DNA of 64,000 bases, taken from the IMG/VR virus record IMGVR_UViG_3300031111_000011, positions 1-64,000 of that record. One strand, 5' to 3'. The notes beneath the pieces are model-generated. The model searched no databases, was not told where the DNA came from, and saw nothing but the letters and a program-made list of their open reading frames with translations. The translations under genes and the position numbers were made by a program. Source of the stretch: a virus. Positions 1 to 63,156 of this stretch are shown here, in pieces (position 1 is the stretch's first letter; each line of letters starts with the position of its first letter).

Positions 1-94
1 GCAGGAGGGATCTTTGATCCCGTATGCCAGAATGGTGAACGAAAGTACCCCCAAGGTACTTTCGAATCACCTATGAAACTAATATACTAATAAA

Positions 95-126
95 CCCAGT
101 TCTTCAGGAACTGGGTTATTTTTTTT
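95..126 (+). terminator. rho-independent terminator hairpin (cccagttc/gaactggg) with T-tract
   Basis: 8-bp perfect stem, 5-nt loop, followed by ttatttttttt. Confidence 0.6.
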
Positions 127-281
127 GAAAAAAATAATATTATATTTTCTATTAGAGAACCCCTTTAGGGGTTCTAATAAATAATATTTAGTATTAATAG
201 AGCCGCCGCTCTATAAGCGGCGTCTATAGAGCCAACCTACCCCGACCCCCTATTTCCGAGTGTGTGCAGATCTGAGAACCA

Positions 282-311
282 GTTGCAAAAATTCCGTGTG
301 AGGGTGTATAT
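282..311 (+). promoter_or_regulatory. sigma70-like promoter TTGCAA-N18-TATATA
   Basis: Near-consensus -35/-10; a TGAGAA half-site lies just upstream at 266-276. Confidence 0.4.
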
Positions 312-340
312 ATACGCCTGAGAACTCGCGGGAGAACTTC

Positions 341-364
341 GGGGCACCCCCTCCGGGGTGCCCC
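341..364. repeat. perfect 10-bp inverted repeat GGGGCACCCC-ctcc-GGGGTGCCCC
   Basis: Strong GC hairpin in the non-coding leader; no T-tract, so not a classic terminator. Confidence 0.6.
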
Positions 365-370
365 CCCCAG

Positions 371-400
371 TATCTGACAACATCTGACAGTATCTGACCA
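371..400 (+). repeat. three tandem 10-bp direct repeats (t/c)ATCTGAC(a/c), iteron-like
   Basis: tatctgacaa / catctgacag / tatctgacca are head-to-tail; shares an ATCTGA core with the palindrome family. Confidence 0.55.
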
Positions 401-858
401 TCCTCATCCTCTCCGCACAAGGTGACTGGGCACCACACTGAGCCACCACTCACCCTGGTCATCATCCTGTACCACTACGACCACACCACACACAACACAC
501 TGAATACATGGCACATACTCACCTCTCACCCTGCGGTATTGTGACCACATTGTGACCTATGGTCCATAGACATCTAAAGGATCGGGAGAAGTGGGTTGTC
601 CTGGTCCTGGTATGGTCCAGGCTAATCACTGCTAATCGTGCGCCCTGGTACGTGAAATCGTATTTCATTATGACATGGCATGTGATGACATTTCACAAAA
701 AGTGTCTCACTATGTGTCTCACTGAGACAACACACCACACTAAGCACCTGATATTACAAGACCCACCTAAGTCACCTACTGGTGACTAATTACCTTCCTG
801 CATTTTATTTCATCTTTTTTGAGAAAAAGAGCATTTGTGAGGAAATCGGAGCTTTTTG

Positions 859-874
859 TGCTCATATCTGAGAA
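859..874. promoter_or_regulatory. palindromic element TGCTCA-tatc-TGAGAA (family copy 1)
   Basis: Matches 16-bp consensus TTCTCA-N4-TGAGAA; lies upstream of the ORF-free 880-1510 stretch. Confidence 0.5.
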
Positions 875-1477
875 GACACACCAAAAACCGGTCCTAATCG
901 GGTCTTATCAGACTTGAGAAGTTGAGTGGGGTTGCGTATAACCAAGCCACGTTGTGAGGGAAACCACAACGGACACGGCGCAAGCCACGTCGCTCTTTTA
1001 CATAGAAGGCCACACGGGATGAGAGGCACAGGGGAAACGGTGCCAGCGAGTAAACCCCATCAATAACATCTCACCTCGTGGCGATGACAAAGATCGGCAG
1101 GGATTTCCCCTGGGGAACGGCTACCCGTCAAGGTCTACTTACTCAAGCCTCAACTTGAGACGCCCAAAATAGTGGCTACGTAGATAAACGGTTAGGGCCG
1201 AGAGCCCAAACGATAACAAAACACACTCAACACGACTCACCATAGCTTGCTTACGGAAAAGTAAGGGATGCGGATGGTGGCAAGTTACTTGCCTTAATAT
1301 CCATTGAAAGCGTCATCCATCGGAAAAGTACGGGCTTCCTGGTGAGTTGTCTCTCCTCTGCTCTCTCATTGGAACATAGAACGGCGTCCCTTTTCATCCC
1401 TTGACATGGTTTCGACTAGGTCATGCGGACAGGATATCACGCCTCGTCGGTCCTTTCGAGGGAGTTGAGGGGAAACC

Positions 1478-1510
1478 AAAGCCCACCATTTAGGTGGTGG
1501 GCTCTGTTTT
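1478..1510 (+). terminator. rho-independent terminator (agcccaccat/ggtggtgggct + tctgtttt)
   Basis: 10-bp stem and T-tract just upstream of the first CDS; would end a non-coding transcript from the 880-1510 region. Confidence 0.6.
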
Positions 1511-1541
1511 CCCTTCAACCTAAGCACAAGGAGCACAGACT

Positions 1542-6974: not shown

Positions 6975-7041
6975 GCTCATTTCGTGGCGGGTCCGGTCCA
7001 CTGTGACCGGATCTGTCACACACACTCGATAAGGAGGATCG

Positions 7042-7176
7042 ATGCAAATAATCTATGTACACGACCAGAAAATTGTCATCAACGACAAAACGCCCAAACG
7101 ACGTGTCCGAAAACGTGTCAAACGACTGGAACCTTACCGACGAAAGGGCAAATACAAGGATCTTTTTGTTGATTAG
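7042..7176 (+). CDS. hypothetical basic mini-protein (44 aa)
   Basis: SD taaggaggatcgATG. Confidence 0.35.
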   Translation: MQIIYVHDQKIVINDKTPKRRVRKRVKRLEPYRRKGKYKDLFVD

Positions 7177-7179
7177 GGG

Positions 7180-7208
7180 TTGACCTACCGCCTGTAATTT
7201 ATATCATA
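7180..7208 (+). promoter_or_regulatory. sigma70-like promoter TTGACC-N16/17-TATCAT upstream of LuxR-family gene
   Basis: -35/-10 spacing; about 40 nt upstream of the ATG at 7249. Confidence 0.4.
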
Positions 7209-7248: not shown

Positions 7249-8028
7249 ATGGAAAAACTCAGAGAGGCAATGTCCAAGGTGCTACGAGACGTAGGCGAAG
7301 GGTACGAACTGTTCTTGCTGGTTACTTACCACAGTCAGACCACTGGGGTCACCATCTTGGACAAGGATCTGACCATCCTCTGGTACAACCCATATGTCCA
7401 AAAATACTTTGGCCTTGAGTTCATTAACACTAATTACCTTGACAGGTTTCCTGGGGAGCAGAGAGAGGCCACGAAGAGTCAACTGCGGCAAGCAGAAAGG
7501 ACCGGGGTCAGTGATCCTGCGCTCCTTCAGCCCCCAGGTGTTGAGATGGTTGTCGAAAGGCGCATCTGGGCAGTCTCAGGCGGGTACATCGCCGCATCCT
7601 ACGACCACACCGTACTCACTCAAGCAGAACAACGCACCAAGGATGTACAGACCACACTGACCCTCTTAGCTGAGGCGCGGGAGGGGCTGATACGGGATGC
7701 CCAACTCAAGACACTGGATATGATGGAAACTCACTGCAAGGCAATCTGCGGCAAATATGGGAACCGAAGCCCGTATGAGTGCAAGTCGAGAAAGAAAGTG
7801 CTGGCTGAGATCCTGGCAGGTAGGCCCAGGCTCCAGACCACACTCACTGACACTGAACTGGAGGTGGCTCGGCTCTACCAAGCGGGTCATCGGAGAAAGG
7901 AGGTTGCCGAGATCCTCGATGTGTCTGAGCATACGGTAAAAAATCATAGTACCTCCATCAGAAAAAAGCTTGGCATGAACAACCCAAGTGTGTCCCTTAT
8001 TGAGTATCTTCAACGGTTTACCTTATAG
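7249..8028 (+). CDS. LuxR/FixJ-family transcriptional regulator with N-terminal PAS-like sensor domain (259 aa)
   Basis: C-terminal HTH TDTELEVARLYQAGHRRKEVAEILDVSEHTVKNHSTSIRKKLGM matches the LuxR-type HTH signature; the N-terminal ~120 aa have PAS-like composition. Confidence 0.7.
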   Translation: MEKLREAMSKVLRDVGEGYELFLLVTYHSQTTGVTILDKDLTILWYNPYVQKYFGLEFINTNYLDRFPGEQREATKSQLRQAERTGVSDPALLQPPGVEMVVERRIWAVSGGYIAASYDHTVLTQAEQRTKDVQTTLTLLAEAREGLIRDAQLKTLDMMETHCKAICGKYGNRSPYECKSRKKVLAEILAGRPRLQTTLTDTELEVARLYQAGHRRKEVAEILDVSEHTVKNHSTSIRKKLGMNNPSVSLIEYLQRFTL

Positions 8029-8177
8029 GACCGGATTAGGACCAGAATGGGACTTAACAAAATATTCTGGCATTGTTAAGTATTTCCTAATCAGGTCGGA
8101 ACCCAGTGATTTAGAACCTTTGGAAGACGGAAGGAGGCAGACGCTCACTTAGGTCGATCTCCCATAAATGGTACACC

Positions 8178-8207
8178 TTGACATACGGAGATGTGAGAAG
8201 GTACAGT
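8178..8207 (+). promoter_or_regulatory. sigma70-like promoter TTGACA-N17-(G)TACAGT
   Basis: Consensus -35; the spacer contains the half-site aTGTGAGAAg of the palindrome family. Confidence 0.4.
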
Positions 8208-8268: not shown

Positions 8269-8628
8269 ATGGAGATCCAAAAGAAAAAGGCCATCAAGAA
8301 TGTTCTCACTGCTTGCAAGCTCATCCGCAAGGAATTCGGTGACCTCCCCTACCCCCAGTTAATTTGTCTGCTGGAGGTCATGGTCGAGGAAGGGATTACA
8401 AAAAACCAAATCGGGGCAAATAACGATCCGACGATGCCAGTAAGCTCTATCAACAGATATGTTGCGAGGCTCACAGACGAGCACGAGCGCAGAAACGCAG
8501 CAGGAAAGCGGGTTCCCGGTCCCCTGACAGTGGATCGAGATCCTGACCTTCCCCAACGTCACCTCGTGAGTCTGACGTCTTTTGGCAAGTTGTTTCGGGA
8601 AGCCCTGGTCAATGAAATGGAGGCTTAA
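8269..8628 (+). CDS. putative winged-helix DNA-binding protein (119 aa)
   Basis: SD aaagggagtcaagaATG; helix-rich small protein downstream of a promoter and nested inverted repeats. Confidence 0.45.
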   Translation: MEIQKKKAIKNVLTACKLIRKEFGDLPYPQLICLLEVMVEEGITKNQIGANNDPTMPVSSINRYVARLTDEHERRNAAGKRVPGPLTVDRDPDLPQRHLVSLTSFGKLFREALVNEMEA

Positions 8629-8849
8629 TGACCAGCCAGGAAATCACTTTTCAGTTCGATGATAACACCCTTAGTGTTGAGGTGGCAGAGGACGGGATCA
8701 ACACTGAGGGTGCGCTATTCCGCTTGAATAAGATCTCTCTGGATGATCAAGAGGAATTGGGTAAGCTCAGGCGACACATAAATGATGCGCTCACCCGATA
8801 CCAAATGCTGCTCGAAAAATATCCAGAGGCAAAGGATGGAGAGATGTAA
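8628..8849 (+). CDS. hypothetical acidic protein (73 aa)
   Basis: TAATG overlap coupling. Confidence 0.5.
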   Translation: MTSQEITFQFDDNTLSVEVAEDGINTEGALFRLNKISLDDQEELGKLRRHINDALTRYQMLLEKYPEAKDGEM

Positions 8850-8865: not shown

Positions 8866-8898
8866 TGAGGAGGGGTTGGCACCTCTCCTCTTTTTTTC
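8866..8898 (+). terminator. rho-independent terminator (gaggagg...cctctcctc + T7)
   Basis: Stem followed by ttttttt; immediately precedes palindrome copy 2. Confidence 0.6.
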
Positions 8899-8906: not shown

Positions 8907-8922
8907 TTCTCATATCTAAGAA
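8907..8922. promoter_or_regulatory. palindromic element TTCTCA-tatc-TAAGAA (family copy 2)
   Basis: Between the terminator and the SD/ATG of 8937. Confidence 0.5.
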
Positions 8923-10465: not shown

Positions 10466-10719
10466 GAATTCAACTCACTCCAGAGGAGATCGACGGACTG
10501 AAGACGTGGTTGGCGTACCCAAAGAAGGTCCGCAGAGGGGAATGTCCGTTTGTCTTTGTGCCGGGGAATACCTGTGCTCGTATCTGCCGCATGGTTTTTC
10601 CGGGTGATGAACTCGGCCTGTGCCCCTGTGACCAAGAGGGCGCAGACCATAAAAAAATCTATGAAGTTGCACGAGAAGGTGCGGAAAGGGGGTACATCAC
10701 AATTGGACTCGGACATTAA
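10462..10719 (+). CDS. hypothetical Cys-containing protein (85 aa)
   Basis: ATGA overlap; internal Met of listed ORF 10375-10719. Confidence 0.45.
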   Translation: MRIQLTPEEIDGLKTWLAYPKKVRRGECPFVFVPGNTCARICRMVFPGDELGLCPCDQEGADHKKIYEVAREGAERGYITIGLGH

Positions 10720-11713
10720 TGGCACGGTGATTTTTCTGACACCGTTTGGATCGCATCTCTACGGTACATCCACTCCGGAGTCGGATCTGGACTACAAGGG
10801 GGTGTATCTGCCGACAAAGGAGCAGATCCTGATCGGGAAGATCCCCAAGACTATCACTCGAAACACCAAGGTCGGAGAGGGGAAGAACAGCAAGGAAGAC
10901 ATTGACTTTCAACTTTATTCTCTCCCCTACTTTGTGGACCTTCTGGTCCAGGGTGAAACGTCGGCTATCGACATGATCCATGTCCGAAAGGATCAAGCTC
11001 TCGTGTGGACGGATGAGTGGGAACGGCTGCACCGCAACCGTCACATGAGCTACAGCAGAAATATGAAGGCGTTCGTCGGGTATGCCCGTAAACAAGCGGC
11101 CAAGTACGGGGTCAAAGGCAGTCGCCTTGCAGCCATGCAAGACGTCCTTGAATACCTGATGGCCTATATCCAGAAGGAGATTCTGTATGATTATGAACGT
11201 GATACCAAACTTCGAGACGTATGGGATGATCTTCCTGATGGTGATCATATTCATCGTCTTGATCCGACTGATCGAACTCCTTATCGCATGTATCAGGTCT
11301 GTGGGAAGAAGTTTATGGAGACAGTCAAGATTCGAGAAGTCTACGCTTCGATCAAGAAGTCCTATGATCAATACGGTCACCGGGCAGAACTGGCGAAGAA
11401 GAATCAGGGCATCGACTGGAAGGCAGTATCCCACGCACTCCGTGCGGCTTACCAACTGGTGGAAATCTTTGGGTCCGGGGATCTGGCCTTTCCACTCGCT
11501 GATGCGGCTTATCTGCGGAAAGTGAAGGAAGGCTCACTGGACTGGACCTCCTGGGTTCAACCCCACCTGGAGGAAATGATGGGCCGGGTGGAGTGTATGG
11601 CCTCTCTCTCCAAATTCCCAGAACAAGTGGACCGGACCTTCTGGAACAATCTGACTATCGACATCATGGAAACGTGGTTACTTACTCAAACTGTAGGAGG
11701 TGAATTATGCTGA
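10661..11713 (+). CDS. nucleotidyltransferase (Pol-beta/minimal NTase fold) of unknown specificity (~350 aa)
   Basis: TPFGSHLYGTSTPESDLDYKG fits hG[GS]-x9-13-D-x-[DE]; a third acidic motif EDIDFQLY lies ~45 aa downstream; start uncertain (ATG 10661 overlaps upstream gene). Confidence 0.55.
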   Translation: MKLHEKVRKGGTSQLDSDINGTVIFLTPFGSHLYGTSTPESDLDYKGVYLPTKEQILIGKIPKTITRNTKVGEGKNSKEDIDFQLYSLPYFVDLLVQGETSAIDMIHVRKDQALVWTDEWERLHRNRHMSYSRNMKAFVGYARKQAAKYGVKGSRLAAMQDVLEYLMAYIQKEILYDYERDTKLRDVWDDLPDGDHIHRLDPTDRTPYRMYQVCGKKFMETVKIREVYASIKKSYDQYGHRAELAKKNQGIDWKAVSHALRAAYQLVEIFGSGDLAFPLADAAYLRKVKEGSLDWTSWVQPHLEEMMGRVECMASLSKFPEQVDRTFWNNLTIDIMETWLLTQTVGGELC

Positions 11714-12774
11714 AGAACGTGACTATTTGTGGCTACAACGTGCGTGAAATCAATCTGGTACTGGCCGAGGACAACACCCCGCTTTACTCTGTGGGAGATC
11801 TCATGATGCCCATGGGGTTCACCCGCTACTCTGCGGCATCCAGGGTCAGGTCCATCCCGGAGCTTACCCACACCAAAATCAAGCTGCCCTCCACGGCCCA
11901 GGCGATTCATGTGGTGACCCCGGAGGGTGTCCTGGCCTTAGCCGAGACGGGGAAGTGTCGTACCAATTTCGTTTCGGAATTTCGATCCTATTGCCAGAAG
12001 GAGGGCATCCCCCTGCCCGATCCGGAAGTCACGCCGGATGGTCCCGCCGTCTTCAACGGCATCGAGATCACCTTCGAGGACGATGTCCTGGTGAGCCTGA
12101 CGGACATGTGGAAAGCGGACGGATCTCGTCAGGCCAAGAAACCCGTCCACTTCCTGAAAACGGATGGGACTGTGGAGTTTATCGAACAAATTCGGGAGGA
12201 AATAAAAGGTAAGGAATCTTACCTTTTACGATCTATCCCTGGTCGAGGTGGTGGAACCTACGCTCACTGGAAGATCGCTGTCCAGTATGCGGCTTTCCTC
12301 AGCCCCAAGTTCGCAAGCTGGATGGCCGATCTGGTCCGGGTCCGGTTCATCGAGATCAACGATCCGGAGCAGGGTGCCAAGCTGTACCGGGAACGTGCGA
12401 TCACCGACCGGATGAACAAGACCGGCTGCTCCCGTGAACAGGCAATCCACTATTTCGAGAAGAGCCTCGTCGCACGAAAAACGGTTTCGTCTCAGATCTG
12501 CCGGTTCGTTCCCAATGCGAGGAAACATATCGCTGAGATCACGGATCATCTCAATATGGGCTTTATCGGAATGAGAGCCCAGGACATCAAGAAAACCCGT
12601 GGGGTTTCCCAGACCCGTGAATCGTTTACCCTTGCGGAGCAGATGGGGGTGGCGTTTCTGGAACAGTGCATGATCGATCATATCGATCAAGTGAGATACG
12701 AAGCTGACCCGTACCACCTGCGGGATATGGCGTACTCCAACGGGCAAAAATGCCGAGCCATGATGGTGCGCTAA
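11707..12774 (+). CDS. Bro-N + KilA-N domain protein (antirepressor-like, 355 aa)
   Basis: N-terminal Bro-N-like LYSVGDLMMPMGF; central KilA-N-like GTYAHWKIAVQYAAFLSPKFASWMADL; SD ggaggtgaattATG. Confidence 0.6.
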   Translation: MLKNVTICGYNVREINLVLAEDNTPLYSVGDLMMPMGFTRYSAASRVRSIPELTHTKIKLPSTAQAIHVVTPEGVLALAETGKCRTNFVSEFRSYCQKEGIPLPDPEVTPDGPAVFNGIEITFEDDVLVSLTDMWKADGSRQAKKPVHFLKTDGTVEFIEQIREEIKGKESYLLRSIPGRGGGTYAHWKIAVQYAAFLSPKFASWMADLVRVRFIEINDPEQGAKLYRERAITDRMNKTGCSREQAIHYFEKSLVARKTVSSQICRFVPNARKHIAEITDHLNMGFIGMRAQDIKKTRGVSQTRESFTLAEQMGVAFLEQCMIDHIDQVRYEADPYHLRDMAYSNGQKCRAMMVR

Positions 12775-12890: not shown

Positions 12891-12906
12891 TTATCAAATC
12901 TGAGAA
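12891..12906. promoter_or_regulatory. palindromic element TTATCA-aatc-TGAGAA (family copy 3)
   Basis: Between the terminator and SD aaggagg of 12918. Confidence 0.5.
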
Positions 12907-14449: not shown

Positions 14450-14465
14450 TTCTCACATTTGAGCA
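14450..14465. promoter_or_regulatory. palindromic element TTCTCA-catt-TGAGCA (family copy 4)
   Basis: Immediately upstream of SD taaggagag. Confidence 0.45.
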
Positions 14466-18181: not shown

Positions 18182-18197
18182 TTCTCAAATCTGAGAA
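18182..18197. promoter_or_regulatory. perfect palindromic element TTCTCA-aatc-TGAGAA (family copy 5)
   Basis: 13 nt upstream of SD aaaggagg of 18210. Confidence 0.55.
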
Positions 18198-22701: not shown

Positions 22702-22916
22702 TGAAACACGCAATCAAACGCCGGGTCTTTTTCTGGAGAAACTTCAACTTCGTGATGCGGGGTTTTCGTCGGCTGAGTACCCGGCTGGAGCGGATTCAGA
22801 AGGAGCGAAAAGCGGAACTCATCGCCATGGCAATCAAGATGAATGCCCTGGAGCGGGAACATGAGGACACGTCGGTGACCCTCAAGAACCTCAAGGAGAT
22901 GTTTCCGGCCCTGTAA
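22701..22916 (+). CDS. hypothetical basic protein (71 aa)
   Basis: TAATG overlap; trimmed from listed ORF 22476-22916. Confidence 0.45.
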   Translation: MKHAIKRRVFFWRNFNFVMRGFRRLSTRLERIQKERKAELIAMAIKMNALEREHEDTSVTLKNLKEMFPAL

Positions 22917-24823
22917 TGTTCCCAACGCTGTACCAGGAGTTCATCTACAAGCGAACCTATTCTCGGTGGCTGGATGAACTCCTTCGGAGAGAGGAGTGGG
23001 AGGACACGGTAGCTCGGTACCAAGAGTTCTTCCTGGACGGTAAACTCAAGGATATTCCCGATGCAGCTAAGGTGGAATTCCTTGAGGCTACCGGTGCAAT
23101 CTACAACCTCGAAGTTATGGGGTCCATGCGGACCCTGTGGACTGCTGGTCCTGCCTTGGCCCGTGAAAACATCTGCGGGTACAACTGTGCTTACAAGGCA
23201 GTCAATACTGTGCGAAGCTTCGCTGAGATCCTGTACATCCTGCTCTGTGGTACTGGGGTTGGGTACAGTGTGGAGCGGCAGGAGATCAACCAACTCCCTG
23301 AAGTCCCGCCTTACTTCTCCACTCCAGAACGCACCGTTGTGTTCTCTGATTCGAAGAAGGGATGGGCTGAGGGATTTCTCAAGTGGATGAACGCCCTCTA
23401 TAAGGGTGAGTTGCTTGAGTACGACCTCTCCCGAATCCGTCCTGCTGGATCACGGCTGAAGACCTTCGGGGGCAGAGCCAGTGGACCTGAGCCCCTCCAG
23501 GAACTTCTGGAATTCGCCAAACGCATTTTTCTCAGTGCCAAGGGACGGAAGCTAACGAGCCTGGAATGTTACGACATCTGCTGCAAGATCGCTGAGGTGG
23601 TTGTCGTAGGAGGTGTGAGACGGTCTGCCTGTATTTGCCTCACCAACCTGTCCGATGACCGGATGGCTAAGGCCAAGACGGGTGAGTTCTGGCTTCTCAA
23701 CCCCCAGAGATCCCTGTCCAACAATTCGGTGGCGTACACCGAGAAGCCTCAAGTGCGGAAGTTCATGAGTGAGTGGCTCAAGCTCATGGAGTCCCAGACC
23801 GGAGAGCGGGGGATCTTCAATCGAAGAGCAGCAGAGGTTGCTGTGCAGCGCACCCTACGCCGAAAGGGAGGGTTCGCTTGGGGCTGCAATCCTTGCGGGG
23901 AAGTGATTCTCCGTCCGTCTGGTCAGTTCTGCAACCTGAGCGAGGCGATCATTCGGGCTGAGGACACTCTTGAAACAATTCTCAAGAAGGTCCGATACGC
24001 AACCATCCTGGGTTGTGTCCAGGCCACACTCACTGCGTTCAAATTTCTGGGGAGTTCATGGACAGTGAACACCGAGGAGGAGCGACTCCTTGGGGTGTCT
24101 CTCACAGGTCTTATGGACCATCCAATTCTTAGTGAGGTGTCGGACAAGGCCAAGGCATGGCTTGTCAAGATGAAAGGAGAGGCCATTGAAACAGCGGAAA
24201 GGTGGTCGGAGATTCTTGGAATTCCGATGCCGAAAGCGATTACGACCGTCAAGCCGTCTGGAACAGTCAGTCAACTGGTTGACTCTGCATCCGGACTTCA
24301 CCCTCGCTTTGCTCCTTTCTATGTACGCCGGGTTCGTGTCTCTGCGACAGATCCTGTAGCGAAGATGCTTGTTGACCAGGGAGTTCCCTGTAGCCCTGAA
24401 GTCGGACAGGACACGGTAAGTCCATCCACTTGGGTCTTTGAGTTCCCGGTTAAGTCTCCGGACAACGCGAAGGTAGCCAGCGCAATCACTGCTCTGGAGC
24501 AGTTGGAGTACTGGCTGATGCTCAAACAGCATTGGTGTGAACACAACCCCTCTTGCACGGTCTATGTGGGAGAGGATGAGTGGTTGGAAGTGGGTGCATG
24601 GGTGTGGAAACACTGGGATGAGATTTGCGGTCTTACCTTCATGCCTCGCAGTGACGCAGTTTACAAACTTGCTCCTTATGAGGAGGTAGATGCGAGGACT
24701 TACTACGATCTTGTTGACGCTCTTCCTGACATCAATTTTGGTGAATTGTCTCGATACGAAACCGAAGACCTCACTGAAGGGAGCAGAGAATTCGCCTGTC
24801 AGGGAGGAGCTTGCGAACTATGA
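22916..24823 (+). CDS. nrdJ: ribonucleotide reductase, class II (adenosylcobalamin-dependent NrdJ-like, 635 aa)
   Basis: N-terminal FIYKRTYSRW; active-site GCNPCGEVIL (NPCGE); size typical of NrdJ. Confidence 0.8.
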   Translation: MFPTLYQEFIYKRTYSRWLDELLRREEWEDTVARYQEFFLDGKLKDIPDAAKVEFLEATGAIYNLEVMGSMRTLWTAGPALARENICGYNCAYKAVNTVRSFAEILYILLCGTGVGYSVERQEINQLPEVPPYFSTPERTVVFSDSKKGWAEGFLKWMNALYKGELLEYDLSRIRPAGSRLKTFGGRASGPEPLQELLEFAKRIFLSAKGRKLTSLECYDICCKIAEVVVVGGVRRSACICLTNLSDDRMAKAKTGEFWLLNPQRSLSNNSVAYTEKPQVRKFMSEWLKLMESQTGERGIFNRRAAEVAVQRTLRRKGGFAWGCNPCGEVILRPSGQFCNLSEAIIRAEDTLETILKKVRYATILGCVQATLTAFKFLGSSWTVNTEEERLLGVSLTGLMDHPILSEVSDKAKAWLVKMKGEAIETAERWSEILGIPMPKAITTVKPSGTVSQLVDSASGLHPRFAPFYVRRVRVSATDPVAKMLVDQGVPCSPEVGQDTVSPSTWVFEFPVKSPDNAKVASAITALEQLEYWLMLKQHWCEHNPSCTVYVGEDEWLEVGAWVWKHWDEICGLTFMPRSDAVYKLAPYEEVDARTYYDLVDALPDINFGELSRYETEDLTEGSREFACQGGACEL

Positions 24824-26422: not shown

Positions 26423-26438
26423 TTCTCAATATTGAAAA
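26423..26438. promoter_or_regulatory. palindromic element TTCTCA-atat-TGAAAA (family copy 6)
   Basis: Directly upstream of SD aaaaggagg of rtcB. Confidence 0.45.
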
Positions 26439-26446
26439 GGAGGACT

Positions 26447-27661
26447 ATGGAAAAGGTCATGTTTTCATCAGGCAGAATCCCTGCCTACTCATGGTTACCA
26501 GTGGACAAACTGGAGGAAGGCGCTCTGGAACAGATCCAGGCTTGCACTGCCCACCCCAAGGCTTACCACCACATGGCTGTGATGCCCGACTGTCACCAGG
26601 GATATGGGATGCCCATTGGCGGTGTGGTTGCCCTGGACGGCGCAATCAGCCCCAACATGGTGGGGGTGGACATCGGCTGTGGGATGAGTGTGGTCCGCAC
26701 CAACGCCAAATTCGTTCACACTTATCAAATCAAGGAAATCCTGAACCGACTCAAGACCATGGTTCCTGTCGGTGAGGGGAAGTTTCGATCTGACCCCGTC
26801 TCCTGGCCCAAGTGGGTGGAGTATCTGGACAAGGTCAAGGAGCGTCCTGACTGGATGAAGGGCTCTAACTGGCATCGGTTCAAGTGCAGCATGGGAACTC
26901 TGGGAGGTGGGAACCACTTTCTGGAGCTTCAGCGGGATGAAGAGGGTTACCTCTACATGATGCTCCACTCCGGTTCCCGTGGCCTGGGGTACGCCATTGC
27001 CAAGTACTACAACGAACTGGCCCAGACCTACTGCGTCAACCTAGACATCCCCAACAAAGATCTGGCTTACCTGCCGACCGATCACAAGTGGGGGCAAGCC
27101 TACATCCGGGACATGAACTTCGCCCTGGCTTTTGCCAAGGAAAACCGCAGGGTCATGATGGATGCCTTCAAATTCGCTTTCTTCCACGTTCTTGGATCTC
27201 CTGTCCGGGAGGACATTGATGTTGTCGATGAGATCGACATCCACCACAACTACGCGGCATTGGAGCACCACTTCGGCAAGGATCTGTGGGTTCACCGGAA
27301 AGGCGCGACTTCGGCCCAGTCTGGACAACTGGGGATCATTCCCGGTTCCATGGGAACCCACTCCTACGTCGTCGCTGGTAAGGGGAACCCGGACTCCTTC
27401 AAGTCCTGCTCCCACGGTGCTGGTCGAGTGAAGGGTCGGATGGCCGCTACTCGTGAACTCGACCGGATGGAGCAGGAGAGGAAGATGGACGGCATTGTCT
27501 TTGACGGGTTCAAAACCCTGAAGAAGGGTAAGCTGAAAGGTGCGTATGACCTGGGCGAAGCCCCTGATGCCTACAAAAATATTGATACTGTCATGTGGCA
27601 CCAGGGGGATCTGGTGGACGTGGTAGTAAAACTCAAACCGATAGGAGTCTTGAAAGGGTGA
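26447..27661 (+). CDS. rtcB: RNA-splicing ligase RtcB (3'-phosphate/5'-OH RNA ligase, 404 aa)
   Basis: RtcB signatures HMAVMPDCHQGYG, GGNHFLELQ, MLHSGSRGLG, CSHGAGR; ATG 4 nt after SD. Confidence 0.9.
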   Translation: MEKVMFSSGRIPAYSWLPVDKLEEGALEQIQACTAHPKAYHHMAVMPDCHQGYGMPIGGVVALDGAISPNMVGVDIGCGMSVVRTNAKFVHTYQIKEILNRLKTMVPVGEGKFRSDPVSWPKWVEYLDKVKERPDWMKGSNWHRFKCSMGTLGGGNHFLELQRDEEGYLYMMLHSGSRGLGYAIAKYYNELAQTYCVNLDIPNKDLAYLPTDHKWGQAYIRDMNFALAFAKENRRVMMDAFKFAFFHVLGSPVREDIDVVDEIDIHHNYAALEHHFGKDLWVHRKGATSAQSGQLGIIPGSMGTHSYVVAGKGNPDSFKSCSHGAGRVKGRMAATRELDRMEQERKMDGIVFDGFKTLKKGKLKGAYDLGEAPDAYKNIDTVMWHQGDLVDVVVKLKPIGVLKG

Positions 27662-28638: not shown

Positions 28639-28937
28639 AGCTGATCTGCTGTCCCTCTTGTTGGGACGTGTTCAAACTCGCCAAGGAAGAGCGCACCTGC
28701 TCATGCGGACGGTGCTCAGGCAGGTACCTCAACAACACCTACGCCGAGACAAATGGTGAGGGAATCAACCTCGCCATTGGCAACGGGTCACTCCTGCAAG
28801 CGGCTTACAACCTCGACCACTTTGCGAAGGACGCAGAGCGTCACGAGTTCATCGACCACAACCCCGTGATCTGTTGGGTCCGTCCTCCAGAAGGACCGGG
28901 AAACCCACACACCACTGTACGAAAGGAGGAATCATGA
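28635..28937 (+). CDS. Cys-rich protein (100 aa)
   Basis: ATGA overlap; CCPSC...CSCGRC cluster. Confidence 0.5.
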   Translation: MKLICCPSCWDVFKLAKEERTCSCGRCSGRYLNNTYAETNGEGINLAIGNGSLLQAAYNLDHFAKDAERHEFIDHNPVICWVRPPEGPGNPHTTVRKEES

Positions 28938-30322
28938 ACCCCATTCTGAATACTGACTCTTACAAAGCGAGTCATTACAGGCAGTACCCTGAAGATGTGG
29001 CCTGGGTGAGTTCCTATATCGAAGCACGGGGTGGAAAATACCCTGAGACGGTTTTCTTCGGGCTGCAAGCCTTCCTGAAGGAGTACCTAAGCAAACCCTT
29101 CACCCAGGCTCATATCAATGAGGCAGAGGACTTCTGGGAGGCTCACGGCCTCCCGTTCAATCGGGGAGGGTGGGAATACATCCTCGCCAGATACCGGGGC
29201 TATATGCCTATTTTGATCCAGGCGGTGGATGAGGGCTCGGTGGTTCCCACTGGCAATGTTCTTGTTCAGATTATTAACACTGACCCTGAAGTTCCCTGGA
29301 TCACCAGCTACGTGGAAACCGCTCTGCTCCGGGCAATCTGGTACCCCACCACGGTGGCTACCCTTTCCCACTTCTGCAAGCGAGATCTCTACAACTACTG
29401 GAAGGAGTCGAGTGACGCTCCTATTGAGTCCCTGGACTTCAAACTTCACGACTTCGGTGCTCGTGGGGTGAGTTCCCTGGAATCTGCTGGACTGGGTGGG
29501 ATGGCCCACCTCGTCAACTTCAAAGGCACCGATACGGTGGAAGGGGTTCTCGCTGCAAGACGGTACTACAACGAGCCCATGGCAGGATACTCAATCCCTG
29601 CTGCCGAGCACTCCACCATCTGCTCCTGGGGCGGTCCAGGACGAGAAATGGATGCCTTCCGAAACATGATCAGCCAGTTCGGTGGAGACTATCCACTGAT
29701 CGCTGTGGTCAGCGATTCGTACAATATCTGGGACGCAGTGGATAACAAATGGCCTTACCTGGATACCGAGATCAGTGCCAGTGGGTCCACCATCGTGGTC
29801 CGTCCGGACAGTGGAGATCCCCACATCGTACCTGTCGAGGTGATCAGCCGTCTCATGCAGAAGTTCGGATTCACGGTCAATAGCAAGGGCTACCACGTCC
29901 TTCCGGATCGAATTCGAGTTATCCAAGGCGACGGGATTACCGGCGATAGCCTGAATCGCATCCTGTTCAACCTCCGGATGAAGCGTCTCAGCATCGACAA
30001 TATTGCCTTTGGTATGGGTGGTGGGCTGCTCCAGCAGATCAACCGGGATACCTGCAAGTTCGCCATGAAGTGCAGTGCGGTTGCTGGCAAGAGCAACCAA
30101 TGGCAACCGGTGTTCAAGCAACCTGTGGATCAGCCTGACAAGGTGAGCAAAAAGGGTCGGCTGAACCTGATCCGGAACTCGGATGGTGAGTTCGAGACGG
30201 TCCCGGAGAAGTGGGAAGAGTCGCGGGGGGTTATGCCCATCCGGAGCATTAACGGGCTCCGCTACCACACCACAACTTTCGAGGAAATCCGGGGACGGGT
30301 CCAGGAGCACCTCATTGCTTAG
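28934..30322 (+). CDS. nadV: nicotinamide phosphoribosyltransferase (NAMPT/NadV, 462 aa)
   Basis: MNPILNTDSYKASHYRQYPE N-terminus and overall length typical of NAMPT; SD aaaggaggaatcATG. Confidence 0.85.
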   Translation: MNPILNTDSYKASHYRQYPEDVAWVSSYIEARGGKYPETVFFGLQAFLKEYLSKPFTQAHINEAEDFWEAHGLPFNRGGWEYILARYRGYMPILIQAVDEGSVVPTGNVLVQIINTDPEVPWITSYVETALLRAIWYPTTVATLSHFCKRDLYNYWKESSDAPIESLDFKLHDFGARGVSSLESAGLGGMAHLVNFKGTDTVEGVLAARRYYNEPMAGYSIPAAEHSTICSWGGPGREMDAFRNMISQFGGDYPLIAVVSDSYNIWDAVDNKWPYLDTEISASGSTIVVRPDSGDPHIVPVEVISRLMQKFGFTVNSKGYHVLPDRIRVIQGDGITGDSLNRILFNLRMKRLSIDNIAFGMGGGLLQQINRDTCKFAMKCSAVAGKSNQWQPVFKQPVDQPDKVSKKGRLNLIRNSDGEFETVPEKWEESRGVMPIRSINGLRYHTTTFEEIRGRVQEHLIA

Positions 30323-34420: not shown

Positions 34421-34648
34421 TTAGTGGATGGGGTCACCAAGGAACACGTAGAAGGGCAAACCACAATGCTTACACCACGCATCCATGCCCCACGAACCAT
34501 CACCAAGTTCCCGGTACTCACCGACTTCAGTGATCATCTCAGAGCACTGGATGCACTCGATCTCGATGGATGCAACGGACATGTCGTCGGACATGTCCAC
34601 AGTCCCAATTTCCTGGCCGACCACATTAAGAGCTTTGTATTTTGTCAT
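34421..34648 (-). CDS. small Cys-containing protein coupled to integrase (75 aa)
   Basis: ATG overlaps the integrase stop (ATGA); CIQC...CKHC. Confidence 0.45.
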   Translation of the reverse strand: MTKYKALNVVGQEIGTVDMSDDMSVASIEIECIQCSEMITEVGEYRELGDGSWGMDAWCKHCGLPFYVFLGDPIH

Positions 34649-35940
34649 TAGCCCACCTTTCCGAAGAGGGGAATCACCTGGGCTGTCTTGGGTGCGTGGA
34701 CCCCGTCATCCTCCCAAGGATGGAACTGAGCAGCCCACTCATCGATGAGCCTCTTCCCCTCCTCCTTGAGGGTCTTCTCAAAGTGGATGTAGTCCTGGGT
34801 GATCAGTGCTCCCATCTGGATTGGGTCACCCTTCTTCTGGATCGTATGAGAGAGCATCACACTCACCAGACGTTCGTTCCCAGACACCTCATAGAGTTTG
34901 GTAGCCAGAGTGTGTCGGAACTTGTGGAAGGATTCACTCTCCTTCCTACTCTTGCCCTTCTGGACCCCAAACAACAGTTCCCTGGCCTGATTGATTGGTC
35001 GTCGAGAGTGCCATTTGAACCGGAACACCTTACCAGTGTATTTGGCCGATCCGTGTTTTTTGGACTGTACCAATTTAATAGCGTCCTTGACGATCTCAGG
35101 CATGTAGAACCATGCCCACTTCCCGTCATTCGGACCCTTTCGCAGGAACTTGAGGGTTCCTTCCTTCCAGTCGATCCGGTCCCACCACACTCCCACATCC
35201 TTCTTATGGTTCCCGTTCCCAGTGAGTTCATGGACTCGGAACCCCATGAAGAAGCCCAGGCAGACCTGGGCGTAAGCTTCGGCCCATCGGAGTCCATCCA
35301 CCCCCTCAGTTTGTCTGTACAGGAACCGTAGCAGCTTGGCTACTTCCTCATCCGTGAACGTCCGGACATCCTCCATCAATTCCTCCTCAGTAGGTTCGGT
35401 GCTGACAGGTTTGACCAGATCAGCCGGGTTAGCCCCGGCGTACAGACCCTCCCCAAGGGCAAACTTGTACAGGTTCCGGATCGTGCTGATGAAGGCGTTG
35501 ATCGTGGTCGGTGCGTAGTGCCCCTCCTTGACCAAAGCCCTCTGAAACACCCGGAGCTTGCCTGGGGTGATTGCCGCCAGGGGCTCATGTGCGAACCATT
35601 TCTTAAACCGCTGGTTGTACTTGGATTGGTAGTTCGGCACAGCCGATGCTCCCACCTTTTCCATGTGCTCCAGCCACAACTTGTACGCCCGACTGAAAGT
35701 GATCGCTTCGAGCTTGTCCGGGATGGCCTGTCCCAGTTTGAGCTTCTGAAGCATCTTATTCCGCTCCTCCTCAGCGATCTGAAGGGAGAATCCGTTGTCC
35801 TCCCTGCCCACCTGGAACCGCTTGTTCTTACCATCCACCTTCACCATGAAGCTGAAGGTCTTGCCATCCCTGCCGTGGTAGGTGTAACAGCCCCGGTGCC
35901 GCTTGCTTGCTACGTGTGTCCCGATTTTCCCCTTTGCCAT
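34648..35940 (-). CDS. int: tyrosine-type site-specific integrase (431 aa from SD-supported start)
   Basis: C-terminal catalytic motifs R...HKFRHTLAT...LSHT...Y; start set at MAKGK with SD aaaggaggtagaATG (listed ORF extends 23 codons further upstream without an SD). Confidence 0.85.
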   Translation of the reverse strand: MAKGKIGTHVASKRHRGCYTYHGRDGKTFSFMVKVDGKNKRFQVGREDNGFSLQIAEEERNKMLQKLKLGQAIPDKLEAITFSRAYKLWLEHMEKVGASAVPNYQSKYNQRFKKWFAHEPLAAITPGKLRVFQRALVKEGHYAPTTINAFISTIRNLYKFALGEGLYAGANPADLVKPVSTEPTEEELMEDVRTFTDEEVAKLLRFLYRQTEGVDGLRWAEAYAQVCLGFFMGFRVHELTGNGNHKKDVGVWWDRIDWKEGTLKFLRKGPNDGKWAWFYMPEIVKDAIKLVQSKKHGSAKYTGKVFRFKWHSRRPINQARELLFGVQKGKSRKESESFHKFRHTLATKLYEVSGNERLVSVMLSHTIQKKGDPIQMGALITQDYIHFEKTLKEEGKRLIDEWAAQFHPWEDDGVHAPKTAQVIPLFGKVG

Positions 35941-36107
35941 TCTACCTCCTTTCGTGGGGTAACAAACCCCGGTTTGATTGTGACTTTCTTGTGACTTTTG
36001 GCCCGTCATGACTTACTGCAATAATTCAATTTTTCAAGTCTGGGCAAATATAACAACTCCGCAAACCTTTGTCAATAGCGAACTTCTCGTGTGTTATCAG
36101 TACCTTC

Positions 36108-36123
36108 TGCTCACATCTGAGAA
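36108..36123. promoter_or_regulatory. palindromic element TGCTCA-catc-TGAGAA (family copy 7)
   Basis: In the int-structural intergenic region. Confidence 0.45.
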
Positions 36124-36244: not shown

Positions 36245-36260
36245 TTCTCAATATTGAGAA
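36245..36260. promoter_or_regulatory. perfect palindromic element TTCTCA-atat-TGAGAA (family copy 8)
   Basis: Abuts the stop codon of the last minus-strand gene. Confidence 0.5.
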
Positions 36261-36587: not shown

Positions 36588-36997
36588 TACACCCCCTTCT
36601 TGAGCGCCATGAAGTCAGCGATCTTGCGGTAACCGAAAGCAGATCCTACGGCGATGCCGAGCATCCATTGGTACCACTGTGGGCAGGTAGCCAGGGCAGC
36701 AAACCCGACTGTGACCCACCCTGCTCCGGTTGGAAAGAAACAGAGGATGGCAGGAATCGAAAGGACAATGGTAAACCATTCATCCTTCCACCCGCTCTGG
36801 TTGATGGAGGTGTTCTCCCAGGCGATGTCCCCCTGCTGTTGGGTGAGCATCTTATTAATGGTAGCTTCGGTTTTCGCCTCAGTCACCTTGACCTTGGATT
36901 CAACCTCCACCTCTTTGATACGTTGCCGATGTCGGAACCAATCTGTGACGGGGGCCATCAGACCCCCGACCAGATCACCAAGGATCTTACCGACCAC
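36587..36997 (-). CDS. putative holin/membrane protein (136 aa, C-terminal TM helices)
   Basis: Hydrophobic segments FTIVLSIPAILCFF, WVTVGFAALATC, MLGIAVGSAFGY; last of the structural cluster. Confidence 0.5.
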   Translation of the reverse strand: MVGKILGDLVGGLMAPVTDWFRHRQRIKEVEVESKVKVTEAKTEATINKMLTQQQGDIAWENTSINQSGWKDEWFTIVLSIPAILCFFPTGAGWVTVGFAALATCPQWYQWMLGIAVGSAFGYRKIADFMALKKGV

Positions 36998-62076: not shown

Positions 62077-62151
62077 TGGAAGGGGCAGAAGGAATCGAAC
62101 CTTCCTGCACAGGTTCAAAGCCTGTTGGTTAAGCCGCTCACCCATACCCCT
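62077..62151 (-). tRNA. tRNA-Gln(TTG)
   Basis: 7-bp acceptor AGGGGTA/TGCCCCT, T-arm GGTTCGATTCC, anticodon loop CTTTGAA, CCA encoded. Confidence 0.7.
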
Positions 62152-62157
62152 ATAAGC

Positions 62158-62232
62158 TGGTCAGGGATGCTGGAATCGAACCAGCCGCCCCAAGCTTCCA
62201 AAGCCCAGGAGACTCCTTGCCGTTATCCCTGA
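62158..62232 (-). tRNA. tRNA-like gene, anticodon uncertain (possibly Pro-TGG); irregular stems
   Basis: Good acceptor TCAGGGA/TCCCTGA and T-arm GCTGG-TTCGATT-CCAGC, but D and anticodon arms pair only with several G-U wobbles; possible pseudo-tRNA. Confidence 0.4.
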
Positions 62233-62243
62233 TGATTTGCAGA

Positions 62244-62318
62244 TGGCTCCAGAACCTGGACTCGAACCAGGATTTCAACGGTTAACAGCCGCGCGTGTTA
62301 CCTTGACACTATTCTGGA
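62244..62318 (-). tRNA. tRNA-Asn(GTT)
   Basis: Acceptor TCCAGAA/TTCTGGA, D-arm GTGT-CAAGGTA-ACAC, anticodon loop CTGTTAA, T-arm CCTGG-TTCGAGT-CCAGG, CCA. Confidence 0.7.
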
Positions 62319-62329
62319 GTGAGGAGAGA

Positions 62330-62406
62330 TGGTTGGAGCGAGAGGATTCGAACCCCCACTTAACGGGTTAAAAGCCCGTTGTGCTAACCGTTGACACTAC
62401 GCTCCA
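62330..62406 (-). tRNA. tRNA-Lys(TTT)
   Basis: Acceptor TGGAGCG/CGCTCCA, anticodon arm ACGGG-CTTTTAA-CCCGT, T-arm GGGGG-TTCGAAT-CCTCT. Confidence 0.75.
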
Positions 62407-62416
62407 ACAAAAAAGA

Positions 62417-62492
62417 TGGTCGCACCACCAGGACTCAAACCTGGGTCTGTCGCTTATCAGGCAACTGTTCTAATCTGTTGAACTATGGTGCA
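62417..62492 (-). tRNA. tRNA-Ile(GAT)
   Basis: D-arm GTTC...GAAC, anticodon arm GTTGC-CTGATAA-GCGAC, T-arm CCAGG-TTTGAGT-CCTGG. Confidence 0.75.
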
Positions 62493-62495
62493 ATG

Positions 62496-62569
62496 TGGCA
62501 CCCCGCTAAGGAATCGAACCCTACCAATGCACCGGGTTGGAACCGGGCCGCACCCATGTGCTGCGAGGT
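62496..62569 (-). tRNA. atypical tRNA (possible Trp-CCA) with truncated D-arm
   Basis: Acceptor ACCTCGC/GCGGGGT (1 G-U), T-arm TAGGG-TTCGATT-CCTTA, candidate anticodon loop TTCCAAC; D-region only CAC-ATGG-GTG. Confidence 0.4.
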
Positions 62570-62583
62570 GTGAGATGTAGAAA

Positions 62584-62659
62584 TGGGGTGAGCGGAGGGA
62601 ATCGAACCCTCTACAACAGGGCCACGACCTGTCGGCTCAACCTTTTGCTCTTCGCCCAC
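62584..62659 (-). tRNA. atypical tRNA (possible His-GTG) with short D-arm
   Basis: Acceptor GTGGGCG/CGCTCAC, T-arm GAGGG-TTCGATT-CCCTC, candidate anticodon arm ACAGG-TCGTGGC-CCTGT (C33); a 6-bp hairpin sits in the downstream spacer. Confidence 0.4.
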
Positions 62660-62696
62660 AGTTGGACCACTCACTAAGAGTGGCTCACCCCACGAA

Positions 62697-62796
62697 ATGG
62701 ACGATGACCGTGGGACTCGAACCCACGCTCCCAAGAGGTGTCTCCCGGCGATCAACCCGTAACTGCCCCCCAGTGTGTTATCCAGCTACACCAGAC
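62697..62796 (-). tRNA. ~100-nt tRNA-like gene with ~25-nt internal insertion (isotype undetermined)
   Basis: Acceptor CGATGTC/GTCATCG (6/7), family D-arm GTGT-AGCTGGATA-ACAC, T-arm GTGGG-TTCGAGT-CCCAC and encoded CCA, but the anticodon/variable region is ~25 nt too long. Confidence 0.4.
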
Positions 62797-62808
62797 ATCG
62801 ATATTTGT

Positions 62809-63151: not shown

Positions 63152-63156
63152 TGAAG

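Follow-up and report, generated by a model that had tools for sequence, protein, structure and literature searches.

One-component regulators that join a PAS domain to a LuxR-type helix-turn-helix (HTH) domain are already known from the VqmA, EL222, and PimM groups, and one of them is phage-borne and controls lysis. The latter is VqmA of vibriophage VP882 (VqmAPhage, gp56), a DPO-sensing quorum-sensing receptor with PAS and HTH domains that activates the adjacent gene qtip (PMC8284805). The LOV-LuxR protein EL222 is a sigma70-dependent activator when its site overlaps the -35 element and represses when the site lies inside the core promoter (PMC5001607), and the PimM-type PAS-LuxR proteins of Streptomyces are pathway-specific activators (PMC6448028). 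In the TF-smORF induction modules (transcription factor and small open reading frame) of linear plasmid-like prophages, a phage transcription factor activates the neighboring gene and, through the product of that gene, influences the lysogeny circuit (Silpe et al. 2023; PMC10432266). Here we describe a regulator of this kind encoded at positions 7249-8028 (plus strand) of a stretch of viral DNA, positions 1 to 64,000 of the IMG/VR record IMGVR_UViG_3300031111_000011 (below, the window); these 64 kb are part of a metagenomic contig that is about 67 kb long and was found in two samples. The regulator gene ends in an array of phased heptamers that leads into a promoter, designated P_down. Judging from sequence comparisons, we lean toward the view that the regulator binds this array, activates P_down, and gates part of the lysogeny circuitry of the phage.

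The gene is an intact open reading frame (ORF) with an ATG start, encoding 259 aa, as described in the original prediction, which was made from the letters of this DNA; a second metagenomic contig carries an identical protein (two contigs in all). That prediction also assigned a PAS-like N-terminus and a LuxR HTH to the protein and proposed a domain search as a check; the HTH is recovered from the protein itself, and the PAS domain from its family and a structural model. The HTH at aa 198-246 (7840-7986, plus strand) matches GerE (Pfam PF00196) with E = 3.1e-12 and 46.4 bits against a cut-off of 23.5, which places the protein in the LuxR/GerE (NarL/FixJ-type) superfamily; it is modeled with a pLDDT of 93-97, and the family profile matches the HTH domains of StyR, VpsT, GerE, EL222, and NarL. 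The PAS domain at aa 28-120 (7330-7608, plus strand) is less obvious from the single protein, which scores 21.2 bits against the PAS model PF00989, just below the threshold of 22.6, and has weak matches to PAS_4, PAS_9, PAS_8, and PAS_GdpP over aa 27-119. The assignment is nevertheless solid, because the family matches, the profile, and the fold agree. Among the homologues, 7/8 match PAS_4, 5/8 PAS_9, and 4/8 PAS (best E = 6.5e-7), and the family profile aligns with solved PAS domains, namely that of MmoS (3ewk, E = 1.7e-5, positions 28-145) and also those of LOV2 and EcDOS.

An AlphaFold model built with an 18-sequence alignment (the single-sequence run was poor, pLDDT 47) has a mean pLDDT of 82, with aa 30-120 above 90, a confident HTH, and a less confident linker. 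Its PAS topology is predicted to be beta-beta-alpha-alpha-alpha-beta-beta-beta, with strands at 32-38, 42-46, 91-93, 102-109, and 112-119 and helices at 48-54, 63-66, and 69-85. When this model was compared with the Protein Data Bank (PDB) by Foldseek, PAS/LOV proteins were retrieved with probability 1.00 and E-values down to 3e-6, the top matches being those with long C-terminal helices, and the isolated PAS domains superpose at a root-mean-square deviation of 2.3-2.8 A over about 95 residues (3fg8). In the model the PAS domain is followed by a helix of 47 residues (aa 121-167; 7609-7749, plus strand), a Jalpha-like or coiled-coil linker that probably forms a dimer. The cysteine motif H162-C163-x3-C167-x10-C178 (7732-7782, plus strand), defined by the family alignment and presumably functional, spans the end of this helix. 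Thus the order PAS, long helix, cysteine linker, and LuxR HTH is practically certain. No cysteine occurs in residues 1-162 of the translation, so that the adduct-forming cysteine of LOV domains (NCRFL-type) and LOV photochemistry are absent; the lack of cysteine in the PAS core rules out a LOV domain. In helix 69-85 (EQREATKSQLRQAERTG) there is no histidine, and H28 and H120 are not conserved, which leaves no heme ligand of the FixL/EcDOS type. Pfam gives no match of the regulator to the autoinducer-binding domain PF03472, even at E-values up to 10, and no match to the receiver (REC) domain PF00072.

The regulator belongs to a rare phage family. An exhaustive HMMER search over 1.84 billion representative proteins, supplemented by a word-indexed search, yielded many matches to the LuxR HTH, yet HMMER returned only seven full-length relatives (P0002, P0003, P0004, P0007, P0009, P0011, and P0014), 28-41% identical to the regulator; the word-indexed search added P0151. 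In all, only about 9 clusters of ~260-aa relatives are present among these representatives. The members are 255-265 aa long, and all have a C-terminal YLQxF tail besides the PAS core, the long helix, and the HTH. Within the family alignment, D38 and W45 of the PAS core are invariant; C167 and C178 are invariant in 9/9 members of about 260 aa, and C163 is present in 6/8 sequences of alignment A1. The linker cysteines are missing from the ordinary PAS-LuxR proteins compared. The regulator itself has every hallmark of the family in alignments A1 and A2, that is, a length of about 260 aa, PAS, long helix, C-x10/11-C linker, GerE HTH, and YLQxF tail. Neither the locus nor the regulator had a match in the INPHARED phage collection, at the DNA or the protein level; scans of IMG/VR gave no relative or generic LuxR HTH matches only, and family-alignment scans of GTDB genomes and JGI metagenomes gave generic LuxR HTH genes only, among the matches listed. 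No full-length match to the regulator was found in BFVD, a collection of predicted viral protein structures.

Every family locus on a long enough contig is a phage or a prophage with an integrase (the window, L003, L004, and L007/L008). In L003 the gene points away from an exonuclease-xis-int block, to which it is divergent, and adjoins an endolysin and an SNF2 helicase gene, in L004 it is located between an XRE regulator gene and xis-int, and in L007/L008 it is one gene from the integrase of a prophage with a T7-type terminase, within bacterial contigs of 235-529 kb. The homologues are thus 1-3 genes from int/xis in three other phage lineages. In an all-against-all BLAST comparison, the regulator was the only protein common to the window phage and the homologue elements; therefore it moves as a module.

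A candidate operator begins at the stop codon of the regulator gene. It consists of three heptamers with 11-bp phasing, TAGGACC (8026-8032), TAGGACC (8037-8043), and TGGGACT (8048-8054), all on the plus strand and separated by ggat and agaa (TAGGACC-ggat-TAGGACC-agaa-TGGGACT, 8026-8054). In 7/8 family loci, all of those with sufficient sequence downstream, the stop codon provides the first base of such an array, with three or four heptamers every 11 bp: TAGGACC, TAGGATA, and TAGACCT in L004; TAGTACC, TGGTACA, TGGTACT, and AAGTACC in L006; TAGTACA, TAGTATA, and TAGTCAT in L003; TAGTACC, CGGTACC, and TGTGTCC in L012; TAGTACC, TAGTACC, and TGAGTCC in L013; and TAACCCC, TCACCCT, and TAACCCT in L007/L008. 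Scored as the identity between successive heptamers at lag 11 (maximum 14), the arrays of seven loci reach 12, 11, 11, 10, 10, 8, and 8. The 12 belongs to the window, where this value is reached nowhere else in 64 kb; compared with all positions of the same locus, each score is in the top 0-2%, and at each locus no other lag does better than 11. When long ORFs from all the DNA fetched were scored in the same way from their stop codons (3519 of them), the mean was 3.7 and 8 stop codons scored at least 10, 5 of them from the family. Ten ordinary REC-LuxR genes taken from the collection scans as negative controls score 1-8 and have no stop-codon array.

The array leads directly into P_down, which has the -35 hexamer TTAACA (8054-8059), a 17-nt spacer, and the -10 hexamer TAAGTA (8077-8082), all on the plus strand, with a predicted start at about 8089. 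The heptamers occupy about -63/-57, -52/-46, and -41/-35 of this promoter and abut its -35 element, the position of a class II activator. In an ungapped stop-anchored alignment the geometry is fixed at 7/7 loci, with a -35-like hexamer at stop+28, a 17-nt spacer, and a -10-like hexamer at stop+51. Across the loci, columns 28-33 read TTAACA, TATACA, TATTCA, TACCAT, TTGCAA, CTGACA, and CTGACA, and columns 51-56 read TAAGTA, TATAAT, TATAAT, TAGGTT, TATCTA, TATCAT, and TACTTT. The corresponding promoter scores at fixed geometry are 7, 10, 9, 4, 7, 10, and 8 of 12, against a background mean of 2.9 and values of at least 7 at 1% of positions. The complete cassette, three or four 11-bp-phased heptamers from the stop codon with the -35 element, the 17-nt spacer, and the -10 element at fixed offsets, is thus found at 8026-8082. 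We have little doubt that the array and the promoter together are a real, conserved element.

Further copies of the heptamer occur in the window. Exact TAGGACC is found four times on both strands taken together; two of these copies are in the array, and one, at 890-896 on the minus strand, is part of a second candidate site with 11-bp phasing, TAAGACC-cgat-TAGGACC (890-907, minus strand), which has one mismatch in 14 positions. By our own calculation about 0.02 such lag-11 pairs are expected by chance in the window. The stretch 8085-8097 (minus strand) is an inverted copy (TCCTAATCAGGTC) of 8029-8041, forming a 13-nt inverted repeat with 92% complementarity, and could represent two weaker opposite-strand heptamers just past the predicted start. 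Two other roles of the array were considered and rejected. An RNA-level role was discarded as the fold is no better than that of shuffled sequences (z = -0.9) and the TAG triplets that recur in phase are not stop codons in every case. Arm-type sites of the integrase were discarded on account of the distances, 2 kb between array and prophage end in L007/L008 and 27 kb between array and int in the window; this idea is also undercut by the lack of any integrase match at E = 1e-4 or better between the window and the other loci.

The regulator likely binds the array, as far as comparisons between loci can tell. It is favored as the array binder because it is the only common gene, because heptamer and recognition helix co-vary, and because of the comparisons involving L004 and L007/L008. 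The window protein and P0002 have in common the recognition helix TVKNHSTSIRKKL and the heptamer TAGGACC at 37-40% overall identity, in unrelated genomes and with different downstream genes. For P0004, the recognition helix KTHTTS / TVKTHTTSIRRK goes with the heptamer TAACCCT, and P0003, P0009, P0011, and P0014 go with TAGTAC-type heptamers. Likewise, L004 and the window have the same heptamer and recognition helix, and a different downstream gene. The DNA of L007 and L008 is identical through the regulator, the array, and the -10 element (positions 10781-10840), and diverges right after. We also observed that the recombination boundary between these two loci coincides with the end of the regulatory cassette, each of them continuing into a different member of phrog_9665. 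Given binding, activation is somewhat better favored than repression.

The predicted target of P_down is a gene at 8269-8628 (plus strand) for a 119-aa MarR-like winged-helix regulator, which matches phrog_9665 ("transcriptional regulator") over its full length with E = 3.2e-7; it has no match in Pfam, the PDB, or the large protein database, and was placed by PHROGs alone. It is followed by a 73-aa ORF from the ORF list (8628-8849, plus strand) and by a terminator-like hairpin with a T-run (8867-8890) that closes this small operon. In L007 and L008, too, the gene that follows the array matches phrog_9665 (E = 3.5e-17 and 2.5e-13; 113-119 aa, the window protein included), and the integrase comes next. 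Relatives of these phrog_9665 proteins are annotated as "MarR family regulator" and are immediately upstream of the integrase in temperate Autographiviridae, namely Roseobacter phage CRP-361 and Rhizobium phage RHEph01. Neither of these phages has a PAS-LuxR gene, and their first genes, considered as hidden relatives of the regulator, were rejected on comparison. Elsewhere the array is followed by a gene for a 153-aa protein with weak HTH signals (L003) or by a small ORF of 55-64 aa (L004 and L012). By its gene contexts, the cassette appears to feed into the lysogeny end of temperate phages, where its targets would be regulators and small proteins. The original prediction had proposed a coupling of the regulator to the lysis-lysogeny decision, and this gains plausibility from the closeness of the homologues to int/xis in three lineages and from the gene that comes directly after it in the window and L007/L008, which encodes a MarR-like regulator of the type paired with the integrase in temperate Autographiviridae. 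We put an influence of the regulator on lysis-lysogeny at about an even chance.

The regulator gene has a predicted sigma70-like promoter of its own, TTGACC-16-TATCAT (7180-7207, plus strand; 10/12 matches in a consensus scan), which ends 42 nt before the ATG, inside the 72-bp gap after the preceding small ORF. Promoter-like matches are not significantly enriched in the 3.5-kb stretch around it (5 against 2.3 +/- 1.7 expected). This promoter, also anticipated in the original prediction, is well placed and is supported by its position and by comparable promoters at the family loci, as 4/7 of them have an upstream match of at least 9/12 within 200 nt (homologues in L003, L006, and L012 included). 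Directly upstream of it is a very basic 44-aa ORF (KRRVRKRVKRLEPYRRKGKYK; 7042-7176, plus strand). An inverted repeat at 6984-7019 precedes this ORF and includes GACCGGA, which also occurs in the first repeat unit of the array.

We suggest the following scheme. Host RNA polymerase would transcribe the regulator gene from its own sigma70-type promoter, and the regulator would bind the three 11-bp-phased heptamers, which start with the stop codon of its gene and cover about -63 to -35 of a weak sigma70 promoter. From there it would act as a class II-type activator of P_down, which is predicted to read into the gene of a MarR-like regulator of the type paired with the integrase in temperate T7-like phages; with such a target, part of the lysogeny circuitry would be gated by the regulator. 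A signal sensed through the PAS domain, the conserved cysteines, or both may set its activity; whether it responds to a signal at all is, in our estimate, evenly balanced. The output may be either lysogeny-favoring, like that of lambda CII, or induction-favoring, like that of VqmA. A cassette that feeds a neighboring gene follows the same logic as VqmA-qtip (PMC8284805) and the TF-smORF modules (PMC10432266).

Several observations weigh against this scheme. The -10 hexamer of P_down in the window (TAAGTA) is poor, and a good second sigma70-like promoter, TTGACA-18-TACAGT (8178-8207, plus strand; 10/12 in the consensus scan), is located between P_down and the 119-aa gene, so that transcripts from P_down would have a leader of about 180 nt. 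Inverted repeats are the usual sites of LuxR-type dimers, and three direct repeats would need head-to-tail or higher-order binding; the inverted partial copy at 8085-8097 could point to looping or to repression instead of activation. In one family locus, L011, of which 42 nt after the stop codon are available, the array is reduced to a loose (A/G)GTC repeat at an offset. Cofactor residues are not recognizable in the PAS domain, which may serve for dimerization only. Finally, the genes downstream of the array in L003, L004, and L012 do not belong to phrog_9665, and the integrase of the window is 27 kb from the regulator.

In an alternative view, the regulator binds the array but is no sensor, its PAS domain serving for dimerization only; the protein would then time the early program constitutively, or repress P_down during it. 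The PAS core has no LOV cysteine, heme-ligand histidine, or other cofactor signature, the PAS domain of VqmA is needed for dimerization (PMC8284805), and the inverted partial copy past the start would fit looping or repression. However, the PAS core with its invariant D38 and W45 is the best-conserved N-terminal part of the family, the two family-specific invariant cysteines suggest a regulated state, and weak -35 and -10 elements with a perfect 17-nt spacer look activator-dependent. We regard a regulator without a sensory role as unlikely, although it is the alternative that survives best.

The original prediction holds in part, but the binding site that it proposed for the regulator, the palindrome TTCTCA-N4-TGAGAA, is not supported. 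The palindrome family itself is real: with at most one mismatch, nine sites are present in the window (859-874, 905-920, 8907-8922, 12891-12906, 14450-14465, 18182-18197, 26423-26438, 36108-36123, and 36245-36260) against 0.34 expected, and two more are found to the left of it in the flanking record L001 (2247-2262 and 2336-2351). The sites are in the left half of the genome, among the early and middle genes and around the integrase, and none is in the structural block. A T-run precedes the palindrome by about 9 nt. Five palindromes are located right after the T-run and 0-4 nt before the Shine-Dalgarno sequence of the genes starting at 8937, 12918, 14479, 18210, and 26447, two are upstream of the integrase, and two (859-874 and 905-920) flank the second heptamer site at 890-907, in the gene-free, repeat-rich 1.6-kb region at the left end. 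The variants of the palindrome are not compensatory, and therefore a DNA-binding protein is favored over an RNA hairpin. Binding of the palindromes by a PAS-LuxR dimer that controls the adjoining genes would agree with their number, with the early, middle, and integrase-proximal location of all sites, with the fit of a 6-4-6 inverted repeat to a symmetric HTH dimer, and with the two sites around the second heptamer pair (859-920). On the other hand, the motif is missing from every homologue locus despite the strongly conserved recognition helix, and it is the array that is linked to the regulator there; no convincing recurrent palindromes paralleling TTCTCA-N4-TGAGAA were seen in L003, L007, and L008 either. 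The five sites next to Shine-Dalgarno sequences leave no room for a promoter downstream and are unfit for a class I or class II activator, and other possible owners exist, namely the phrog_9665 regulator and the KilA-N protein encoded at 11707-12774. Control of the adjoining genes by the PAS-LuxR dimer through the palindromes is thus improbable, and they are probably not the main site of the regulator. We assign them to another factor because no homologue locus has the motif and because there is no room for an activator-type promoter. The phrog_9665 regulator would be the obvious candidate, and if it binds the palindromes, the PAS-LuxR regulator and the phrog_9665 regulator would form a two-step cascade. 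It is possible that the palindrome binder is a second phage regulator, or that the palindrome is an unusual promoter element.

The array could also be the operator of another protein, through autoregulation by the MarR-like regulator or through a host response regulator of the PhoB/OmpR type, with the PAS-LuxR protein acting elsewhere. MarR-type proteins often autoregulate, a 7+4 direct-repeat layout abutting the -35 element resembles pho boxes, and the array is upstream of a phrog_9665 gene at three loci. But four loci with a downstream gene from outside phrog_9665 (L003, L004, L012, and L013) have the array as well, the window and L004 have the heptamer and the recognition helix in common but not the downstream gene, the array and the regulator are the same in L007 and L008 but the MarR-like proteins are divergent, and the PAS-LuxR regulator is the sole protein common to all loci. 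We consider operation of the array by another protein very improbable. Last, that the gene is moron-type cargo, mimicking a host LuxR-family regulator and reprogramming host rather than phage genes, is highly improbable, since a conserved cis-element travels with the gene inside the phage and a second heptamer pair occurs in the control region of the phage itself, even though VP882 VqmA also activates the host vqmR promoter (PMC8284805) and the gene has its own promoter and adjoins the integrase at the prophage end in L007/L008. Binding of the array and activation of P_down by the regulator thus remain the reading that we prefer.

The genome around this locus contains a plus-strand block with the genes for primase, DnaB-like helicase, DNA polymerase A, ribonucleotide reductase, RtcB, nicotinamide phosphoribosyltransferase (NAMPT), and DNA ligase, and minus-strand genes for capsid, portal, internal-virion, tail-fiber, and terminase proteins. 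The phage is temperate, as concluded from the presence of a tyrosine integrase at 34648-36009 (minus strand), which the original prediction also named and which matches phrog_1 with E = 6e-31 and Phage_int_SAM_1 above the cut-off, and which scores 24.6 against 27.1 with the Phage_integrase model. The earlier label "T7-like podovirus" is apt in a loose sense only. It fits the T7-style primase, helicase, and PolA block and the podovirus-like internal virion proteins, but not the set of large ORFs: those of at least 600 aa in the window encode PolA, ribonucleotide reductase, the tail fiber, the portal, and two proteins of 978 aa (with Flg_new_2) and 2235 aa (with LPD38), and no single-subunit RNA polymerase was found among them. 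Of the contig, about 3 kb are outside the window, and the 2752 bases upstream of the window start (L001) contain tRNA genes and small ORFs. Presumably the phage relies on host RNA polymerase throughout, and phage regulators of sigma70 promoters would therefore be central to its program.

Several other features of this genome were observed. The 2235-aa ORF (36987-43694, minus strand) has LPD38 and DUF7178 domains of the large polyvalent-protein type, is located at the start of the structural block, and has no match to RNA polymerase families at E-values up to 0.001. The 1.6 kb at the left end (window 1-1541, L001 2650-4293) contain no credible ORF and, besides the heptamer pair and two palindromes, have short direct repeats (ATCTGAC three times, ATTGTGACC twice, GCTAATC twice, TGTCTCAC twice, and GGTCC runs) that give no Rfam match; this region could be an origin, packaging, or control region. 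At L001 2313-2410, back-to-back strong sigma70 promoters, TTGACA-16-TAGAAT rightward and TTGACA-16-TATATT leftward, flank the palindrome TTGTCAAGTGTGAGAA, in what looks like the main divergent early control region of the phage. An array of tRNA genes occupies 62077-63735 (minus strand) and L001 60-2240 (minus strand), with 12 tRNAs in the window by ARAGORN (13 by Rfam) and 8 more past its left end; at least 20 tRNAs are many for a 67-kb phage. The Rfam scan of the window found tRNAs only. Auxiliary genes encode an RlaP-type nucleotidyltransferase (10550-11713), the KilA-N DNA-binding protein mentioned above, ribonucleotide reductase (22916-24823), the RNA ligase RtcB (26432-27661), and nicotinamide phosphoribosyltransferase (28874-30322). 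Together with the large number of tRNAs, RtcB suggests that tRNAs are repaired or that their cleavage by the host is countered.

Few phage sensors that feed lysis-lysogeny are understood, namely VqmA of VP882, phage LuxR receptors, arbitrium, and the TF-smORF modules, and control of the MarR-integrase module in temperate T7-like and related podoviruses is largely unknown. Tentatively, the regulator may be the founding member of a phage sensor family that reads a host metabolic, redox, or metal signal and switches on the MarR-like (and integrase) module of temperate podoviruses through a portable gene and a triple-heptamer class II cassette. If so, it would provide a second, independent phage route that ties lysis-lysogeny to a sensed cue, beside VqmA, LuxR, and arbitrium. 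The locus is a compact test system, as it combines a sensor-fold regulator, conserved cysteines, a candidate operator, a fixed-geometry promoter, and a predicted target gene, and it recurs in unrelated phages with an operator that co-varies with the protein. A cassette in which the regulator gene ends inside its own predicted target promoter could also serve as a portable regulatory part.

Among described systems, VqmAPhage is alike in being phage-encoded (235 aa, compared with 259 aa here) and in having an N-terminal PAS domain and a C-terminal LuxR-type HTH. The description of such a regulator in this phage as unusual must therefore be qualified, since a phage PAS and LuxR-type regulator has already been characterized in VP882 (PMC8284805). 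VqmAPhage acts on the promoter adjoining its own gene and steers the lysis-lysogeny switch (PMC8284805); an adjoining promoter is present here too, and the regulator is predicted to act on it. The fold is similar over the whole chain, as Foldseek retrieves 7dwm with E = 2.8e-5 and the V. cholerae VqmA structures 6ide, 6ugl, and 6kju. In contrast, hhalign aligns only the HTH with VqmAPhage (50 columns, probability 90%), BLASTP gives no significant match, and neither method found homology across the ligand-binding PAS domain of VqmA. The regulator has an extra linker of about 75 residues, with the long helix and the conserved cysteines, and whereas vqmA and qtip of the phage are divergent, the predicted target promoter here is downstream, at the stop codon. 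The candidate site consists of three direct heptamers, whereas VqmA binding involves both DNA strands of the promoter (PMC8284805).

In EL222, too, a PAS-type sensor is followed by a linker helix and a LuxR-type HTH; the profile matches 8a5r and 3p7n through the HTH, and Foldseek matches the whole chain. Unlike EL222, the regulator has no cysteine in the PAS core, a much longer linker, only a generic PAS signal in the PAS region, and a phage as its carrier. The TF-smORF modules are alike in logic, not in sequence: in L004 and L012 the array promoter faces a small ORF of 55-64 aa, but in the window, L007, and L008 the neighbor is a MarR-like DNA-binding protein of 113-119 aa and no small antirepressor. 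The PimM-type regulators bear the same two-domain label but are chromosomal and belong to antibiotic gene clusters, a distinction drawn from their description; judged from generic PAS-LuxR proteins only, they have no cysteine linker of the kind found in the family, and they were not among the matches listed in the family protein searches. Lambda CII is an activator that binds direct repeats at the -35 region of weak promoters driving integrase or repressor genes. It resembles the arrangement in L007/L008, where the array promoter faces a MarR-like gene and then the integrase, but its fold is unrelated and it has no sensor domain. What is new, compared with these systems, is a family with a cysteine linker, its restriction to temperate phages, and a conserved promoter cassette that starts at the stop codon of the regulator gene.

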